Below, in pieces: positions 1,726 to 38,837 of a stretch of 49,051 bases of DNA (position 1 is its first letter; every line of letters begins with the position of its first letter). The stretch comes from an archaeon (GTDB lineage: Archaea > Aenigmatarchaeota > Aenigmatarchaeia > Aenigmatarchaeales > DATDXV01), in assembly GCA_035289205.1 (NCBI GenBank), contig DATDXV010000021.1:1-49051 (forward strand). The letters are read 5' to 3'. Under the pieces are notes generated by a model. The model was given only the letters and a program-made list of their open reading frames with translations. It did not search any database and had not been told where the DNA came from. The position numbers were made by a program, and so were the translations under genes.

Positions 1726-2075
1726 AAGTTGATCAGCTTAGGGCTGTAGCTGGTGAAGCCAGAGCTGATGTAGCTGGAGGCAAAAACGCTCTTCTCAGGC
1801 AGCTGCGCGGAACAGTCAGCTGTATCGCAGATTTCCACCTGGAAATCCAAGGCAGGCGATATGCAATTCGCAAGCTCATTCCTGAGCCCTGTTTCATCGC
1901 TGTTCGCAGCGAACGACGCGAGGAGATTCCTGTCCTCAAGCTTCTGCAAGCAATAATCTCCCACGTTTGCCAATGACTCGGTTGTTGGGGCAGGGGAAAC
2001 CAGAATAAAAAGAGAAACCATAATCATGGTAGCTGCTATAACAGCCTCAAGAGTTTTTATGAATCCCTTTACCAC
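1707..2075 (-). CDS. prepilin-like protein (start re-assigned to GTG 2073-2075)
   Basis: ORF track 1707..2183 overlaps the upstream gene. The GTG start gives (M)VKG|FIKTLEAVIAATMIMVSLFILV and overlaps the upstream TAA (2069-2071) in coupling style. Confidence 0.55.
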   Translation of the reverse strand: MVKGFIKTLEAVIAATMIMVSLFILVSPAPTTESLANVGDYCLQKLEDRNLLASFAANSDETGLRNELANCISPALDFQVEICDTADCSAQLPEKSVFASSYISSGFTSYSPKLINLWMWYR

Positions 2076-3306: not shown

Positions 3307-3531
3307 TTGGGAATGAAGGTAGTTTACACGAAGCATGCAGAATTCAGATTAATAGAAAGGTCAATTAAGAAGGAATGGATCGAGGCAGCCATAAAGAATC
3401 CCGATAGGATAATAGAACTGGAAAATGATCATAAGCAAGCCATAAGGCTCACAGACAAAGGCAAGATCAGTGTTATTTATACTGTAGAGAAAGAAAATAT
3501 AATTGTGATAACGGTTCATTGGGGTGAATAA
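3307..3531 (+). CDS. DUF4258-family small protein (putative toxin of a DUF4258/DUF2283 pair)
   Basis: 74 aa; YTKHAEFRLIERSIKKEWIEAAIKNPD pattern typical of DUF4258; directly abuts the partner gene (stop TAA 3529-3531, next ATG 3532). Confidence 0.6.
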   Translation: MGMKVVYTKHAEFRLIERSIKKEWIEAAIKNPDRIIELENDHKQAIRLTDKGKISVIYTVEKENIIVITVHWGE

Positions 3532-3747
3532 ATGGAAATAAGTCTAGACACAAAAGCGAATGCCCTTTATATTAAATTCCAGAAAGGAAAGTTTGCGAAG
3601 AACAGGAAATTGGACAACGACACGATAATAGATCTTGATGAAAAAGGGAGAATTCTGGGTATTGAAATGTTAAATGCAAGCAAAAGAATATCTTCAAAAG
3701 ACCTGGAAAATGTAAAGGTAAGACTGCCTCTTCAGATCTCTTCTTAG
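3532..3747 (+). CDS. DUF2283-family small protein (putative antitoxin partner)
   Basis: 71 aa; ANALYIKF...IIDLDEKGRILGIEMLNASK matches the remembered DUF2283 pattern (D.LYI...vD.d..G.i.GIEil.as). Confidence 0.6.
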   Translation: MEISLDTKANALYIKFQKGKFAKNRKLDNDTIIDLDEKGRILGIEMLNASKRISSKDLENVKVRLPLQISS

Positions 3748-4520
3748 AACAGAGCAAATGCCAAATAGCCGACTAGGACCAGTATCAGTGAATGCTTCAG
3801 TCCGGCTCGCATTCTGCCCTCGGAAAGTTTGCCGATTACTATTCCAGAGAAGAAGCCCTGTATAAGAATGAGATAGAACAAAGTCCCGCTGTACAAGGCA
3901 GTAACGTCCTTCCCTCCGGTTCCTAAGGTAGAGAGGCTTGGAACAAGGAATCCCTTCAGTGATACAAGAACGCCTAGGAAAACAAAAAATATCACATACC
4001 CTGTTAACAGCTGCGAGTATACTTCAGCCTGCCTCTCCTTCCTTATCTTCTCTATGTCATACATCGCATTGACAACGCTGTCCAAAACCTTCGAAACATC
4101 CCCTCCGCTGTCATAGGCCTCGACTATGGCAGTGGTGACCCTCTTTACGGTAGTTCCTCCCACCTTGGCAAAATCTTCGATTATCTTGTCAAAAGGGACC
4201 CCCCAGTCAATCTTGACAGCCATCTGCTTCACATGCTTTGACAGGACGCCGTAATCATTCTTCTTTGATGAATGCAGCGCCTGAGGCAGTGTCATCCCAG
4301 CCTTCATGCTTTCAGACACGTCCGTCAGGAAGTCTGGAAGCTTCTCCTCTATCTCCCTGATCTCCTTGTATTTCAGGTATTCAATGGAGAGGGGGATTCC
4401 AAACGCAAAGATCGCGGAGGCTATGACAAGCAACTGGGAATTCAGGTAGAGATAGTTAAGCGCAAACAGCACAATGCCTGCTGTGATTGAGATTAATGCA
4501 ACGGTTCTTTCGTCCTTCAT
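3744..4520 (-). CDS. FlaJ/PilC/TadC-type pilus assembly membrane protein, C-terminal half (one T2SSF domain)
   Basis: LPDFLTDVSESMKAGMTLPQAL...DWGVPFDKIIEDFAK...AYDSGGDVSKVLDSV plus TM helices; ATG directly follows the in-frame TAG of the upstream half. Confidence 0.75.
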   Translation of the reverse strand: MKDERTVALISITAGIVLFALNYLYLNSQLLVIASAIFAFGIPLSIEYLKYKEIREIEEKLPDFLTDVSESMKAGMTLPQALHSSKKNDYGVLSKHVKQMAVKIDWGVPFDKIIEDFAKVGGTTVKRVTTAIVEAYDSGGDVSKVLDSVVNAMYDIEKIRKERQAEVYSQLLTGYVIFFVFLGVLVSLKGFLVPSLSTLGTGGKDVTALYSGTLFYLILIQGFFSGIVIGKLSEGRMRAGLKHSLILVLVGYLAFALF

Positions 4521-6222: not shown

Positions 6223-6621
6223 ATGTTTGGCAAGGGTGTCTCGGAGTATGTGGCAGTTCTGCTGCTGATGATCATATCCCTGGCGCTGGCAGGCCTAATC
6301 TACATCTTCTACCAGTCTAACATAAACACAATCTATCCAGGGGAGCAGATAGGGGAGAAGTATGCTTCAACCAGGTCTTGCCTGAGCATTGATGAATTGA
6401 ACGCCGCTGCGGGGACGGCTTTGATGAGAAACTGCGGCCAAGTGCCGTTGAGCAGCTTTGCGCTTTACATAGACGATGTCAAGGAAACAGTTTCTCTTCC
6501 GCAAACGCTCCAGCCAAATGAGAAGTTCAACATAGCTTTCACGCCCCTCTCCGCCGGAAAGCATGTGATATATATATCATCGGACAAGACCTCTTCCGCA
6601 ATCATGAGGATTACAATATAA
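6223..6621 (+). CDS. archaeal type IV prepilin-like protein (start re-assigned)
   Basis: The track ORF 5902..6621 overlaps the FlaH-like gene antisense. The internal ATG gives MFGKG|VSEYVAVLLLMIISLALAGLIYIF. Confidence 0.65.
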   Translation: MFGKGVSEYVAVLLLMIISLALAGLIYIFYQSNINTIYPGEQIGEKYASTRSCLSIDELNAAAGTALMRNCGQVPLSSFALYIDDVKETVSLPQTLQPNEKFNIAFTPLSAGKHVIYISSDKTSSAIMRITI

Positions 6622-6646
6622 ATATAAACTCGCAGATACTCTTCCT

Positions 6647-8296
6647 ATGAAAAAGGCCAAGCAGAAGCCCGGCAAAGAAAAAGCTCCGGCTAAGATATCA
6701 AAAGCAATAAAGCAGCCTCTGAATTTAGATACTCCTTTGGCCAAGCTCAAGGCAGGGCTGTTAGGCAAGAGAGAAAAGATAAAGCTGCCGAAATTCGAAC
6801 TGAAAGAGCCCTCCAAGATTATAGTCCTTCCTGACGGAAAGGAGTCTGTAAAGTACGTTCTAATAGAGCCCTTTGCTTCTGCAGAAATCAAAAAGGTCGG
6901 AGGAAACGAAATGGTCTACACCATTTCAGAACCGCAGCTCTCAAAGGAGGAGCAGAAGATATATGAACAGATCGTGGGAGGCCTGATGGAGATACTGGAT
7001 GTGGAGCTCTCTTCCATAAAGGAGCATGGAGAAGCGCTGAAGTACCTTATGGAAAAGACGGAGGATGTAGCAGAGGAATTGAACATCAAGCTGAAGGATG
7101 AGAGTTACAGGAAGATATTATATTATATATACAGGAACCTGATAGGCTTCAACGAGATAGAAGCTGTTCTGAAGGACCCGTATGTCGAGGATATATCCTG
7201 CGACGGCACAGGGATTCCGATATACGTTGTCCATAGAAGGTATGGATCGCTGAAGTCGAACATAATATTCAAGGATGAGAACACTCTTAAGGATTTTGTT
7301 GTAAAGCTTGCTGAAAGGGCTGGAAGATTTATCTCCTATGCAGAACCCCTGCTTGATGGAACTCTTCCCGATGGTAACAGAGTCCAGGCTTCGTTTTCAA
7401 AGGACGTAACGTCAAAAGGACCGACTTTCACAATCAGGAAGTTCGCGGAAGAACCCTTCTCCCCCGTAGAGCTGATAAAGAACGGCACATGCTCTGAAGA
7501 TGTGTTTGCATACCTCTGGCTCGCTGTTGAGTCAGGGGCATCTGTTTTGATAGCGGGAGGGACAGCAACTGGCAAGACAAGCATGCTCAATGCTCTGTCA
7601 ATGTTCATTCCCTCTGCATCAAAGATAGTATCCATAGAGGATACAAGAGAATTAAATCTTCCGCACGAGAACTGGATCCCCTCTGTTACCAGGCCAGCCT
7701 TCTCAAAGGGATACGGGGAGATAACGCTCTTCGACCTTCTGAAAAGCGCGTTCAGGCAGTCTCCAGACTATGTCATTGTTGGCGAAGTTAGAGGGCAGGA
7801 GGCTTATGTAATGTTCCAAGGGATGTCTGCAGGAATGCCCTCGATAGGGACATTCCATGCAGGGAAGATGGAGGACGTTCTAAACAGATTGCAGAGCCCT
7901 CCCATAAATCTCTCTCCAGCTCTCATAGAATCGCTTGATCTGATAGTTGTAATGGTCCATGCAAGGGAGAAGGGAGAGAACGCCAGACGATTGAAGGAGA
8001 TAGTTGAGATTGAGTCCATTGACACGAAGACTGGAACAGCGAGAACAAACAGAGTCTATAACTGGGAACCTGCGGATGATACATTCGGCTTTGCAGGAAC
8101 GTCATGGCTTGTTCAGAAAATATCACAGCTCAAAGGAAGGGCAACGGAAGATTTGGAAGCAGATCTGAAGAACAGAAAGAATATCCTGGAGTGGATGAAG
8201 AAGAACAATGTTGTAAGGTTCAGGGATGTTTCTAAGGTTGTTTCCGATTACCAGAAAGATCCTGAAGATGTCTTGAAGAGATTGAAAATAAAGTAA
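6647..8296 (+). CDS. type IV pilus/archaellum-family secretion ATPase (FlaI/PilB/VirB11 type)
   Basis: Walker A LIAGGTATGKTS, Asp box IVSIEDTRELN, Walker B PDYVIVGEVRGQEA, His box GMPSIGTFHAG. Confidence 0.9.
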   Translation: MKKAKQKPGKEKAPAKISKAIKQPLNLDTPLAKLKAGLLGKREKIKLPKFELKEPSKIIVLPDGKESVKYVLIEPFASAEIKKVGGNEMVYTISEPQLSKEEQKIYEQIVGGLMEILDVELSSIKEHGEALKYLMEKTEDVAEELNIKLKDESYRKILYYIYRNLIGFNEIEAVLKDPYVEDISCDGTGIPIYVVHRRYGSLKSNIIFKDENTLKDFVVKLAERAGRFISYAEPLLDGTLPDGNRVQASFSKDVTSKGPTFTIRKFAEEPFSPVELIKNGTCSEDVFAYLWLAVESGASVLIAGGTATGKTSMLNALSMFIPSASKIVSIEDTRELNLPHENWIPSVTRPAFSKGYGEITLFDLLKSAFRQSPDYVIVGEVRGQEAYVMFQGMSAGMPSIGTFHAGKMEDVLNRLQSPPINLSPALIESLDLIVVMVHAREKGENARRLKEIVEIESIDTKTGTARTNRVYNWEPADDTFGFAGTSWLVQKISQLKGRATEDLEADLKNRKNILEWMKKNNVVRFRDVSKVVSDYQKDPEDVLKRLKIK

Positions 8297-8302
8297 TTTT
8301 AT

Positions 8303-9040
8303 TTATCTCTTTACAGCTACTACCCGGCCGCCCGAATCCGAGCCCGCCAAGCCGCTCCAACCGGAGTCCAGGCCCAAGGACCTGTCCAGACCCAACCTGG
8401 AAAGACCAGATTCCATTGTATAGGAAGTTCTGCTTCCATTCTTATCAGGCAGAGGCATGCCGTTCTTGTCTGTCTCGTTGAAATTGGCATTATTCTTCAA
8501 TGCAGGGACAACAAGAGGTTTCGCTCCCTTGCGAAGCGTAAGGCCCAGACTATCAGGAGAATTCGCATCATTCACAAGGCTAAGATCTCCTGGAAGGATT
8601 GCAACAGGGTCCGTTATCTCCTTAACGTGAAGCGCCTTCTTTATCTGCGGCTCAATCTGCTTGGCATGATAAGAGTTCGGATTGCCCGCGCTCCTGAAAA
8701 CCAATCCGTAGTCAACATAACTTCCGCGTGTATCAATACCTAGAGCAGGATTGGATTCGTGCAGTTTTCTTGCAGCTTCCATGTCAACAGGCCTTGCCAG
8801 CTGCAGCCCTGACTCCCTTAGGATGTCAGCAGCAACAATAGAAGCATATAGGTTGGAACCCTTCACAACATTGTTTTCGAGTTGCAAAACTCCCTTTAAG
8901 TTTTTGTTGTTGTCATAGCCTTGCTCAACAGACATGTTATATGCTTGCAGGAAGTCCTTGCCGAACTCCCCTTCCAGATATCCTATCATTGGAACATCTG
9001 CCGTCATAGGCCTTCCAGTGAACTTTGGTGAGTCTTTCAT
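8303..9040 (-). CDS. hypothetical protein
   Basis: 245-aa ORF with no recognised motif; TTTATAAA at about -25 from the ATG. Confidence 0.5.
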   Translation of the reverse strand: MKDSPKFTGRPMTADVPMIGYLEGEFGKDFLQAYNMSVEQGYDNNKNLKGVLQLENNVVKGSNLYASIVAADILRESGLQLARPVDMEAARKLHESNPALGIDTRGSYVDYGLVFRSAGNPNSYHAKQIEPQIKKALHVKEITDPVAILPGDLSLVNDANSPDSLGLTLRKGAKPLVVPALKNNANFNETDKNGMPLPDKNGSRTSYTMESGLSRLGLDRSLGLDSGWSGLAGSDSGGRVVAVKR

Positions 9041-28965: not shown

Positions 28966-29038
28966 TAAATATCTCCTTTAGGCAGCCTAGGCTATTGGAG
29001 AGCCCATTGGAAAACAGGCCCATCTTAATGACTAAGAA

Positions 29039-29153
29039 GGATTTCCTGTTCGAGGGTCTGTTCGCATTTACGCCTCCATAGGAGTTCGCGTTGAACGACG
29101 CTTGACGGCAACTTCTGCTGCTATCGTCCGGATTCCAGTTGGACCTGAGCGAA
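29039..29153 (-). repeat. DGR template repeat (TR)
   Basis: Collinear with the VR in three blocks; all 14 differences are at TR adenines (coding strand); AAC/AAT-rich. Confidence 0.85.
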
Positions 29154-29372
29154 CGGTTTTGTAGCCTGTACATTAAAGAACCGCTTTTGGCGGCTACCAC
29201 TGCTACTTCAGCCTTGACTGTCGTAGCTGTATTTAATGGCTCTATTGGAGCGCTATGGACAGGCGTATAGCCTAGGCTTTTGCCTGGAGAAGTAAGATTG
29301 TCGGAGTGCCCCCCCCCGAAGGGAGAGGAAGGACTAGCTGCATAACTATCTCTAGAAACTATAGAGCCTAGG

Positions 29373-29386: not shown

Positions 29387-29920
29387 CTAGGAAAAGAATT
29401 TTCTTGCTTCCCTGTATTTCAGGGCGTCTTCCTTGAAGCTAAGAAGCTCCTGATACTCTGCCTCGTCTACCTGCCTTGTCTCTGCAGATTTCTGTGCAGC
29501 ACTTTTCTTTTCATCCTTCTCTCCAACCACAAAAGCGGAGAGCCCACGGGAATACCCGCCCGAGGGTCTGTCCGCATCCGCGCGGAACGACGCATCGCCC
29601 GGAGCCCAGTAGGACCAGAGCGAAGCTACATCATTCTCAAAATAAATAGGACCTTTCCAGACCTTCTTCTTCGGCTTTTCAAACAGTCCCGCTCCGATGA
29701 GCGTGTCTATGGCTGTTTCCTTTATCTTAGTCGTTATCTTTTCTCCGGTAAACGCCAGCTTCCCGTCCTTGATCTCCACCTCGGGGTTCGCTATGACAAA
29801 CCCTGCGGAAATTATGACCTCAGCATTATGAACCCAGTAATTGGTCGTTAAAGCCTTATATTCCGCGTTAGAGAATGTCTCATTGTAAGCCCTCTTTGTT
29901 GGAAGGACTCCTACCGCCAT
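29387..29920 (-). CDS. DGR target protein carrying the variable repeat
   Basis: 177-aa ORF. The VR encodes SLWSYWAPGDASFRADADRPSGGYS, an R...P...R..G..F pattern reminiscent of C-type-lectin/FGE-fold DGR targets. Confidence 0.75.
   Translation of the reverse strand: MAVGVLPTKRAYNETFSNAEYKALTTNYWVHNAEVIISAGFVIANPEVEIKDGKLAFTGEKITTKIKETAIDTLIGAGLFEKPKKKVWKGPIYFENDVASLWSYWAPGDASFRADADRPSGGYSRGLSAFVVGEKDEKKSAAQKSAETRQVDEAEYQELLSFKEDALKYREARKFFS
29519..29542 (-). promoter_or_regulatory. inverted repeat immediately 3' of the VR (possible DGR target-recognition hairpin)
   Basis: CTCTCC 29519-29524 / GGAGAG 29537-29542, 12-nt loop, 7 nt beyond the VR boundary. Confidence 0.4.
29549..29624 (-). repeat. 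DGR variable repeat (VR)
   Basis: 76 nt aligned to the TR; 62 identities, 14 mismatches, all opposite TR adenines. Confidence 0.85.
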
Positions 29921-29953
29921 TCCTGACTTCTTGCGAAGCTCCTTTCCGAGCTA

Positions 29954-30094
29954 GCCGGTCTGCCACCTGTCAAGGCCGGTGACGTATTTGCCGCTCTTCA
30001 GCTTTACAATCTGCACGCCAGGCTTGTCGAAAAGCTCCATCTTGTCAGCTGTATCGTATGCAACCTGCAGGTGAGCCTCCGCTTCGTTTGACAT
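29954..30094 (-). CDS. 47-codon ORF in frame with the DGR target, separated from it by TAG 29951-29953
   Basis: MSNEAEAHLQVAYDTADKMELFDKPGVQIVKLKSGKYVTGLDRWQTG*; TATA box 23 nt upstream of its ATG. Confidence 0.4.
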
Positions 30095-30190: not shown

Positions 30191-30505
30191 ATGCCAAAAC
30201 TGGAAGAAACGCATGTCATTAAGTTCAGGAGAAAAACAGAGATCATGGCAAGACTTATGCGCGAAGACGGGTACGATGCTAAGACTTCGGATAACGGCGA
30301 AACATTCTACTTGGATGTCAGGCACATGAAGGAAGGGAAGCTGGAGCGTCTGGGAAAAATAAGAACGAGAGCTGATAGCTATAAGTGGCGTGTAGACATC
30401 TATCAGACCGATGCGGCTCGGGATTTCAGGGAATATGTGATAAACATGTCAAATGCCTTCTTCGGACCAACATTGGAAATAGAATGGGATTCTAAAACAT
30501 CTTAG
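30191..30505 (+). CDS. hypothetical protein
   Basis: 104-aa ORF; no motif recognised. Confidence 0.45.
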   Translation: MPKLEETHVIKFRRKTEIMARLMREDGYDAKTSDNGETFYLDVRHMKEGKLERLGKIRTRADSYKWRVDIYQTDAARDFREYVINMSNAFFGPTLEIEWDSKTS

Positions 30506-32744: not shown

Positions 32745-32867
32745 TGGTGCGGGGGGCAGGATTTGAACCTGCGGACCTCTAAAGGACCAGATTTCTCTAT
32801 CATCTCAGAGATCAAAACTCAAGAGTTTCTTGAGTCTGGCGCCATTGCCGGACTAGGCGACCCCCGC
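32745..32867 (-). tRNA. tRNA-Leu(CAA) with about 36-nt intron at canonical 37/38 position, encoded CCA
   Basis: Hand fold: acceptor GCGGGGG/CCCCCGC, 3-bp D stem, anticodon stem CCAGA/TCTGG, loop CTCAAG|intron 32793-32828|A. 14-nt variable arm, T arm GCAGG TTCAAAT CCTGC, A73, CCA. Confidence 0.85.
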
Positions 32868-38012: not shown

Positions 38013-38735
38013 ATGAACATTAGAAAATTCTGCAATACTGATTTTGCTTATTGGATAGGTATAATTCAGACAGACGGCTATTTCCAGCATTATGAATATA
38101 ATAAAAAGAAAATGGTTTTAGCCAGAGCGTTTAATAAGAACTTGGCTATTATAGAGAGGTTCAAAGATATTTCCTATAGATTGTTTAATAGAAAATCGAA
38201 GATAGTAAAATACAAAGACAGGTCCGCTATGGAATATAGAATAGGTGTAAAGGAATTTGTTCCATTGTTCCATAAACTAAAGATTAAATTATCTAAACCG
38301 CCTACTCCACCGAACTGGATATTAAATTCTAATAAGTTCTTTGGTGCCTATTTAGCAGCTATTATAGACGGTGATGGCGGTGTTAGAATAAAACGATATA
38401 AATATCCTCAATGTGTTATTAGAATAATAAGTGGTGAATTTCCTCATAAATTATCAAAGGCAGTTGAAAGAATACTCAGATGCAGTATCTACTCTGAGTA
38501 TAGAGAACGAACAACCTTCATAGGTAATAGAAAAATCTCTGGAAAATCTTATACATTAGAATTTAATATAACTAAGAAAAATATTGGCTTTGTTAAGAAT
38601 TTCATACTTCCACATATAGTATCTTCTCATAAATCTGACAAAATAAAAGAGTTCCTTATAATGAAAGATTATCAATTCATGACAAGGTCTTCCAGTTCTC
38701 CTTGTAATGCTAGTATTTTTCACGCCGATCATTAA
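38013..38735 (+). CDS. free-standing LAGLIDADG homing endonuclease (two-motif, monomeric type)
   Basis: FAYWIGIIQTDGYF and FGAYLAAIIDGDGGV; markedly AT-rich relative to flanks. Confidence 0.8.
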   Translation: MNIRKFCNTDFAYWIGIIQTDGYFQHYEYNKKKMVLARAFNKNLAIIERFKDISYRLFNRKSKIVKYKDRSAMEYRIGVKEFVPLFHKLKIKLSKPPTPPNWILNSNKFFGAYLAAIIDGDGGVRIKRYKYPQCVIRIISGEFPHKLSKAVERILRCSIYSEYRERTTFIGNRKISGKSYTLEFNITKKNIGFVKNFILPHIVSSHKSDKIKEFLIMKDYQFMTRSSSSPCNASIFHADH

Positions 38736-38742
38736 AAAGTAA

Positions 38743-38837
38743 TGGTGGGCCGAGCAGGATTTGAACCTGCGACCTTTACCGTGTGAGGGGTCCGCTCCTC
38801 GAAGAGGATTAACGTCATACCGCTAGACCATCGGCCC
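38743..38837 (-). tRNA. tRNA-Val(CAC) with 20-nt non-canonical intron inside the anticodon stem (about position 29/30), encoded CCA
   Basis: Acceptor GGGCCGA/TCGGCCC, Val-like D arm GGTCTAGCGGTATGAC. Anticodon stem TTA|intron 38790-38809|CC pairs with GGTAA, loop CTCACAC, variable AGGTC, T arm GCAGG TTCAAAT CCTGC. Confidence 0.7.

Follow-up and report, generated by a model that had tools for sequence, protein, structure and literature searches.

A diversity-generating retroelement of a DPANN archaeon with a template repeat probably interrupted by bulge-helix-bulge introns

Introduction

The 49,051-nucleotide (nt) contig DATDXV010000021.1 of an archaeon assigned to the Aenigmatarchaeota (assembly GCA_035289205.1), here called the window, carries a cassette of the diversity-generating retroelement (DGR) type, comprising a reverse transcriptase (RT) gene, a template repeat (TR) and a target gene that holds a variable repeat (VR). 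The two repeats differ in length and can be aligned only with gaps, which raises the question of how a template might be copied into a shorter repeat while whole internal segments of it are left out. We propose, with a probability of roughly 0.8, that the locus is a DPANN-archaeal DGR whose TR is interrupted by three short introns of the bulge-helix-bulge (BHB) kind, in the relaxed HBh′ form.

The template repeat exceeds the variable repeat by three blocks

TR and VR were compared by gapped local alignment and by an adenine-tolerant alignment. Both lie on the minus strand, the TR at 29153-28993 (161 nt) and the VR at 29624-29533 (92 nt), so that the TR is longer by 69 nt. Four blocks of homology are split by three TR-only blocks of 21, 18 and 30 nt (Table 1). 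When the latter are excised in silico, each repeat is 92 nt long and 74 of the 92 positions are identical; the 18 mismatches all fall on TR adenines of the coding (minus) strand, of which 25 are present (P = 8e-14), as expected of a DGR. The equal length and collinearity of a DGR repeat pair are lacking at the DNA level (161 against 92 nt) and appear only after block removal. Read in the VR frame, the block-free TR is RSLRSNWNPDDASFNANANRPSNRNSNGLSN, in which AAY codons are abundant.

The first-pass annotation of this DNA had recognised a DGR repeat pair, which the adenine-only mismatches bear out, and two TR-only blocks, which both alignment methods reproduced. The 21-nt block lies at 29102-29122, as drawn; the other keeps its length of 18 nt and moves from 29067-29084 to 29068-29085, a 1-nt shift that reflects ambiguity at an A. 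The extents given for the repeats, with an excess of 39 nt, were too short, the third block of 30 nt having been left out. A 9-mer, GGGCTCTCC, had been noticed beyond the end of each repeat and taken as a hint of further gapped homology. It occurs at both places, and the fourth homology block exists (TR 29012-28993 against VR 29552-29533), behind the 30-nt block at 29042-29013. A realignment giving repeats of equal length was sought; no better global alignment was obtained, and gaps are required. The other public assemblies that cover the repeats (VR, n = 4; TR, n = 5) agree with the window at every base, and the blocks are therefore not the assembly artefact that had been considered.

No second VR was found within the 49-kb window. 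TR exon 2 has a 21-nt adenine-tolerant match at 1902-1922 (minus strand), inside the open reading frame (ORF) 1707-2183; this match includes one mismatch away from an A, its flanks show no homology, and it was judged to be due to chance. JGI metagenome contigs, searched with A-to-N tolerance for the junction of block 1 and exon 2, gave 0 matches; the TR itself is missing from them too, which makes the result uninformative for this organism.

The gapped layout recurs at fixed sites in related loci

A further 80 loci were fetched via RT alignment, giving 61 loci in all with a clear VR. At least 34 of the 61 have TR-only blocks, one to three per locus and 15-57 nt long, and VR-only blocks of 10 nt or more were found in none; in more distant loci the repeats are collinear in the ordinary way and measure 82-100 nt. 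An alignment of the block-free TRs places the blocks at three conserved insertion sites, the 3′-most of which is occupied in 32 loci. At one and the same site, near-identical TRs occur with and without a block: the sequence ..AACTCGAA^TTCC.. is interrupted in L034 and L036 and contiguous in L049 and L047, a difference that, judged from these sequences, is a presence/absence polymorphism of a putative intron. In locus L006, whose RT and target are 64% and 34% identical to those of the window, blocks of 21, 31 and 17 nt occupy the same three sites and mismatches between the repeats are again confined to A.

The blocks have the geometry of bulge-helix-bulge introns

The BHB motif, found in pre-tRNA, pre-rRNA and some pre-mRNA, is defined by two 3-nt bulges around a 4-bp helix (PMC5829648). 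All three window blocks can be folded in this way, with a 4/4 central helix between exon bases -6 to -3 and block bases -6 to -3, 3-nt bulges and an inner hairpin, following the formula exon ..(c1-c4) b1 b2 / b3 (hairpin) (c4′-c1′) b1′ b2′ / b3′ exon, where slashes mark the cuts. The canonical tRNA intron at 37/38 has its third-last base paired with nucleotide 32, and this is the basis of the rule that cuts follow the second bulge base. Cuts placed by this rule predict introns of exactly 21, 18 and 30 nt in the window, and the VR lacks the blocks exactly at these sites, as do VRs in many other loci at theirs; no other register gave both the block lengths and a junction compatible with the VR.

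A strict form of the motif (4/4 central helix and 2 bp or more of inner helix, in a register that reproduces the block length) is present in 51 of 66 blocks from 34 DPANN loci, against 1.2% of random pseudo-introns given equal register freedom; when the assumed register was moved by 1-3 nt, 0 of 48 fitted. The first intron base is an A in all blocks with at least three central pairs (64/66). Over 64 junctions brought together in a mini-alignment, pairing reaches 93.8% in the central and 94.3% in the inner helix, and every pair shows double-sided changes, whereas slid controls reach 32-42%. About 25 distinct central-helix pairings occur, among them CTCG/CGAG, CAGG/CCTG, GACG/CGTC, TGCG/CGCA, ATGC/GCAT, CACG/CGTG, GGTG/CATC and CCAC/GTGG. 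Compensatory changes are also evident between the window and L006, in the inner hairpin of block 1 (AUAGC UUAA GCUAU in L006, at the same site) and in the central helix of the 31-nt counterpart of block 2 (AUGC/GCAU). The minimum-free-energy fold of the whole TR region is not distinctive (z = -1.2), with a slightly different pairing for block 1; the case for BHB pairing is therefore one of covariation and not of energy.

The window also contains a tRNA gene with an insertion of this build (38746-38837). ARAGORN reads the gene as a 95-nt tRNA-Glu(ttc), and as a regular 72-nt tRNA-Val(CAC) once 20 nt are taken out; the spurious ttc anticodon is the hairpin loop of the intron. Since removal of the 20 nt yields a normal tRNA-Val, the organism appears to process introns of this design, which suggests that the host can remove introns made like the TR blocks.

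The blocks could also be omitted without any splicing if the DGR RT, while making complementary DNA (cDNA), jumped across each hairpin by template switching, and RT slippage has already been invoked for TR/VR indels by Wu et al. (PMC5758913). We regard this as unlikely. The blocks are indeed hairpins, and 37 of 62 junctions have microhomology of 1-4 nt, but the other 25 have none whatever. The removed segment is moreover staggered: the exon keeps one strand of the basal 4-bp helix, while the partner strand is lost with the block, which is the signature of BHB cleavage and not of a hairpin skipped whole. Jumping would not predict the invariant 4 bp and 3-nt bulges, a fit that a one-base shift of register destroys in all cases, nor an intron of the same build in a tRNA gene of the same window. 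The block retained in one VR of locus L055, described below, could on the other hand represent a failed jump.

Information flows from TRs with blocks into VRs without them

Many non-A positions distinguish the TR of the window from that of L006, and in both loci the VR tracks its own TR. This implies that transfer of information from TR to VR has continued since the two lineages split, without the blocks. Six multi-VR loci have two or three VRs for each TR with blocks, and all 13 VRs lack the blocks at the same place. The exons on either side of the junction bear different A-substitutions in different VRs, which indicates that a single cDNA spans the junction with the block already absent. Locus L055 has one TR (3850-3959) and two VRs (969-1075 and 3493-3584). 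Its proximal VR lacks the 18-nt BHB block, whereas the distal one keeps 15 of the 18 nt, with A-to-G changes inside; unspliced RNA thus seems to be used occasionally as a template.

These comparisons bear on the idea, raised by the first-pass annotation, that the local VR arose by decay or deletion and that the real, full-length VRs with blocks reside in other genes of the genome. The distal VR of L055 is a precedent for a block inside a VR, the three blocks of the window are in frame and stop-free, and the 49 kb examined are only part of the genome, in which further VRs with retained blocks are possible. We nevertheless consider decay very improbable. A short VR is the usual state in about 50 homologous targets, the gapped layout recurs in DGRs with RTs 50-65% identical to this one, and in diverged lineages it is into short VRs that information flows. 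The block-free VRs of the six other multi-VR loci, like the lack of a second VR in the window, do not fit decay, which would also leave the BHB geometry unexplained. The comparison of orthologous loci that the annotation had called for finds the gapped layout conserved in L006 and others, as a real feature and not as decay. Two of its further suggestions fare differently: indels created by retrohoming are not the best account of blocks with fixed sites and conserved RNA structure, and an expanded TR comes closest, in that the TR has gained sequence, in the form of intron-like insertions. Its remark that the TR with blocks resembles a C-type-lectin VR pattern does not hold, as neither the sequences nor the lengths of the blocks are conserved between loci. 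A full-length cDNA that loses its blocks at integration by loop repair, or gene conversion that keeps TR and VR alike, would yield gapped homology with a length difference in one direction, yet predicts no conserved RNA structure, covariation or exact cut register and would need exons down to 13-17 nt to support recombination, and we find it scarcely credible.

In four loci (L036, L024, L061 and L071) the last TR exon ends ..CGGAATA and every VR ends ..CGGGGTA, a fixed AA-to-GG difference. It resembles the distinction between the initiation of mutagenic homing (IMH) and IMH* sites rather than random mutagenesis; the equivalent ..CCAATA of the window subfamily varies among VRs. L024 is a contig of Nanoarchaeota AAA011-G17, the organism of PMC4372165.

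A model in which the template is spliced before it is copied

In the model that we favour, a precursor RNA containing RT-16 (a structured RNA motif described below), the TR and its introns would be transcribed first. The host tRNA-splicing endonuclease EndA would cleave the six bulges, each after its second base, and the ligase RtcB would join the four exons. The resulting 92-nt spliced template would be reverse-transcribed with adenine-specific errors, and the cDNA would replace the 92-nt VR. A template spliced before copying would make TR and VR equal in length at the RNA level, as in a canonical DGR, which would explain the mismatch in length between the DNA repeats. That EndA and RtcB are the agents, and that the blocks are removed on RNA ahead of reverse transcription, is what the shape of the motif and the block-free VRs lead us to infer.

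As a secondary proposal, unspliced RNA may occasionally serve as template, which would select for introns that are stop-free and a multiple of three (3n) in length. The first-pass annotation had attached meaning to the in-frame block lengths, and the bias is real across the family: 42 of 62 blocks (34 loci) have a 3n length (binomial P = 4e-8, with the relatedness of the loci ignored), and in the VR frame 38 of these 42 are stop-free, compared with 44 of 84 readings in the other two frames. The window blocks are all in frame and stop-free, and encode SSRSCRQ, NSYGGVN and KSFLVIKMGLF. Extended to the family, the model describes a large DPANN DGR clade with a template in pieces, whose one to three BHB introns the tRNA-splicing machinery must remove and whose occasional unspliced use adds length variants of the target and selects 3n open introns; this extension we hold to be probable.

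Several points weigh against splicing. We infer it from DNA alone, and RT jumping would give an identical product. The strict motif is missed by 15 of 66 blocks, and the register of each block was picked among the shifts permitted by adenine ambiguity, which involves some fitting, although the random control had the same freedom. EndA and RtcB are expected in any archaeon; neither gene was found among the roughly 35 ORFs scanned in the 49-kb window. The outer helix, expected to close the 3′ bulge, is 53% paired over the 64 junctions, close to the slid-control background, so that the motif is the relaxed HBh′ form and demands an EndA of broad specificity. The VR shows no sign of current activity at the consensus level, its consensus being identical in four other assemblies.

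Loop insertions in DPANN EndA go together with more tRNA-gene disruption, which has been tied to broader substrate recognition (PMC5829648). In L020, a locus whose DGR has putative introns, genes for RtcB (E = 5e-161) and archease are found at 6450-8367, 1.4 kb downstream of the RT, which may be a coincidence. The L020 record is labelled 'bacterium', and its cassette is of the DPANN type.

The RT-16 motif abuts the template repeat

Directly 5′ of the TR lies a match to the RT-16 structured RNA (Rfam RF03019). RT-16 also scores above the gathering score in 15 related loci, with 55.7-98.5 bits (L006, L010-L015, L020, L024, L033, L045, L059, L070, L072 and L082). In 14 of these 15, no more than about 3 nt separate the end of the motif from the start of the TR, whether blocks are present or not; the exception is L012, with about 97 nt. 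The DPANN DGR RNA thus appears to have RT-16 as its 5′ element. The original description places the motif only 'near RT genes' and speculates on a possible role of RT motifs in DGRs (Weinberg et al. 2017, PMC5737381); its abutment to the TR and the putative introns downstream do not figure in that description.

Upstream of RT-16 there is a run of G9-G10 that is kept in L006 (29309-29317 in the window, a C run on the plus strand and G9 in the RNA). An 8-nt palindrome, GCCTAGGC, stands just 3′ of TR exon 4 (28985-28992) and again in the first RT-16 hairpin (29270-29277); its counterparts in L006, GCCTAGAC and GTCTAGAC, are at the same places. The two palindromes may pair over a long range, with RT-16 and the TR enclosed between them.

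Relation to known elements and significance

In canonical DGRs, such as those of Bordetella phage BPP-1 and of DPANN/Nanoarchaeota (PMC4372165), as in the window, the RT stands beside the TR, the target carries the VR in its 3′ portion, mismatches are adenine-specific and the template is AAY-rich. The window differs from them in that three non-template blocks break the collinearity of TR DNA and VR, and in that the 5′ flanking RNA is RT-16. With archaeal BHB introns (PMC5829648) the blocks share the 4-bp central helix, the 3-nt bulges, cuts after the second bulge base (here predicted), an inner hairpin and a length of 15-57 nt, as well as the occurrence of several per gene at fixed sites and presence/absence polymorphism, features that are typical of DPANN tRNA genes. 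They depart from known BHB introns in their weak outer helix (HBh′), in the bias of their lengths towards 3n with open frames, and in a host RNA that is the non-coding template of a retroelement, whose spliced sequence, we propose, is written back into DNA elsewhere. Both the DGR and the archaeal BHB intron are thus of known kinds, and it is their combination that is new relative to the literature found. We found no publication linking the two, although the main survey of DPANN DGRs (Paul et al. 2017, Nat Microbiol) may hold an earlier mention; in the 2015 Nanoarchaeota DGR paper 'intron' means group II introns only (PMC4372165). 

The insertion of an intron into a DGR template has an experimental counterpart. 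The td intron is said to have been first used in the BPP-1 TR by Guo et al. in 2008. An engineered td group I intron in that TR was spliced, and the ligated exons served as the template that was reverse-transcribed and mutagenised (Naorem et al. 2017, PMC5703328). That intron was artificial, self-splicing and placed in a bacterial phage, whereas those proposed here would be natural, multiple, conserved across many archaeal lineages and, we suggest, spliced by proteins. Wu et al. (2018, PMC5758913) reported unequal repeats for about 7% of DGRs, with differences in multiples of 3 bp commoner than others, and explained the indels by slippage of the RT at AAC repeats. In contrast to those indels, the present blocks are long and structured, always lie on the TR side and occupy fixed sites.

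If the splicing model is correct, this would be the first natural DGR template to bear introns and a new class of host RNA for BHB introns, whose archaeal range would widen to the non-coding RNA of a retroelement. It would be a natural record of DGR information passing through processed RNA, nature's version of the 'intron in template' experiment that showed the RNA intermediate. A class of 'non-canonical' length differences between TR and VR, so far put down to RT slippage, would be explained, and DGR finders that demand collinear repeats would truncate or miss many archaeal TR/VR pairs. A spliced template would also provide a built-in reason why the TR DNA escapes being overwritten by its own cDNA. 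The retroelement would be tied to the tRNA-splicing pathway of its host, a possible control point for hypermutation, and the bias towards 3n lengths and open frames, with the block retained in L055, points to alternative templates as an additional source of diversity.

Organisation of the cassette and neighbouring genes

The cassette lies wholly on the minus strand, in the order target gene, RT-16, TR and RT gene (Table 1). The 420 nt upstream of the RT gene are non-coding and are followed by the ORF ending at 29387, which holds a repeat of part of that stretch. Homologues of the RT number in the thousands; the nearest, 60-65% identical, come mostly from metagenome-assembled genomes of Aenigmarchaeota and other DPANN, and sequence comparison places them in cassettes with A-biased TR/VR pairs, as befits an RT of the DGR type. 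An identical RT protein is encoded on nine contigs of other assemblies, one of them a Rifle aquifer scaffold. No Avd-like accessory gene was recognised beside the cassette, and there is no ORF between target and RT.

Table 1 Features of the cassette and the intron-containing tRNA gene. A slash marks a predicted cut and parentheses enclose the inner hairpin.
Feature	Position	Strand	Details
DGR reverse transcriptase gene, 339 aa	27946..28965	-	Pfam RVT_1, E = 4e-21
TR exon 4, 20 nt	28993..29012	-	includes the 9-mer GGGCTCTCC; ungapped against VR 29552-29533, 5 mismatches, all at TR A
TR-only block 3, 30 nt, putative BHB intron	29013..29042	-	CAGG AA/A (UCCUUCUUA GUCAU UAAGAUGGG) CCUG UU/U; central helix 4/4, inner hairpin
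TR exon 3, 25 nt	29043..29067	-	matches VR, mismatches A-only
TR-only block 2, 18 nt, putative BHB intron	29068..29085	-	ACGC GA/A (CUCC UAU GGAG) GCGU AA/A; central helix 4/4, inner 4 bp
TR exon 2, 16 nt	29086..29101	-	matches VR, mismatches A-only
TR-only block 1, 21 nt, putative BHB intron	29102..29122	-	GACG AU/A (GCAGC AGAA GUUGC) CGUC AA/G; central helix 4/4, inner 5 bp
TR exon 1, 31 nt	29123..29153	-	against VR 29624-29594, 5 mismatches, all at TR A
RT-16 structured RNA (Rfam RF03019)	29156..29288	-	58.1 bits against a gathering score of 50
DGR target gene, 235 aa in other assemblies	29387..30094	-	window copy has an in-frame TAG at 29951-29953
VR, 92 nt	29533..29624	-	encodes ..SLWSYWAPGDASFRADADRPSGGYSRGLSA..; 18/25 TR adenines substituted, otherwise identical
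tRNA gene with 20-nt intron (38809-38790)	38746..38837	-	ACGU UA/A (UCCUC UUC GAGGA) GCGG AC/C; Rfam tRNA match, 20-nt excess in anticodon arm

The in-frame TAG of the target gene is GAG (Glu) in three other assemblies and is the sole difference in 1.3 kb; the window copy represents either a nonsense variant or a base error of a gene that is elsewhere an intact 235-aa ORF. The VR spans residues of about 158-187 of the 235, near the 3′ end of the coding sequence as in other DGR targets. A Pfam scan of the target protein gave no match. Its AlphaFold model (pLDDT 92, pTM 0.79) puts the VR on three consecutive strands (residues about 156-193), and nothing in the PDB matched the model significantly (best E = 0.14); a C-type lectin fold ranked second, with E = 0.18, which is no evidence for it. 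An exhaustive HMMER search yielded a family of about 52 representative homologues of 215-270 aa, where a word-indexed search had recovered only the target itself. The short VR region is present in all of the approximately 50 homologues, with the consensus ..ASVWSxWxxxxxCFxAxAxxPSxxxxxGxAAF...

The adjacent 104-aa ORF at 30191-30505 has no Pfam match. Flanking genes include those for isoleucyl-tRNA synthetase, fibrillarin, Nop56/58, an archaeal pilin, KaiC-type ATPases, TrmB regulators and a wyosine-synthesis enzyme, a set that identifies the host as archaeal. A second tRNA gene at 32748-32867 (minus strand), matched by Rfam and missed by ARAGORN, possesses a long variable arm, and its anticodon-loop sequence CUCAAG is followed by 36 extra bases; these bases gave no resolution into clean BHB introns, and two introns are possible. 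Beside the two tRNA genes, a 240-aa ORF at 38013-38735 (plus strand) matches LAGLIDADG_3 only weakly, short of the Pfam cut-off (E = 2e-4), and the L006 contig also has an ORF with faint similarity to LAGLIDADG_3.

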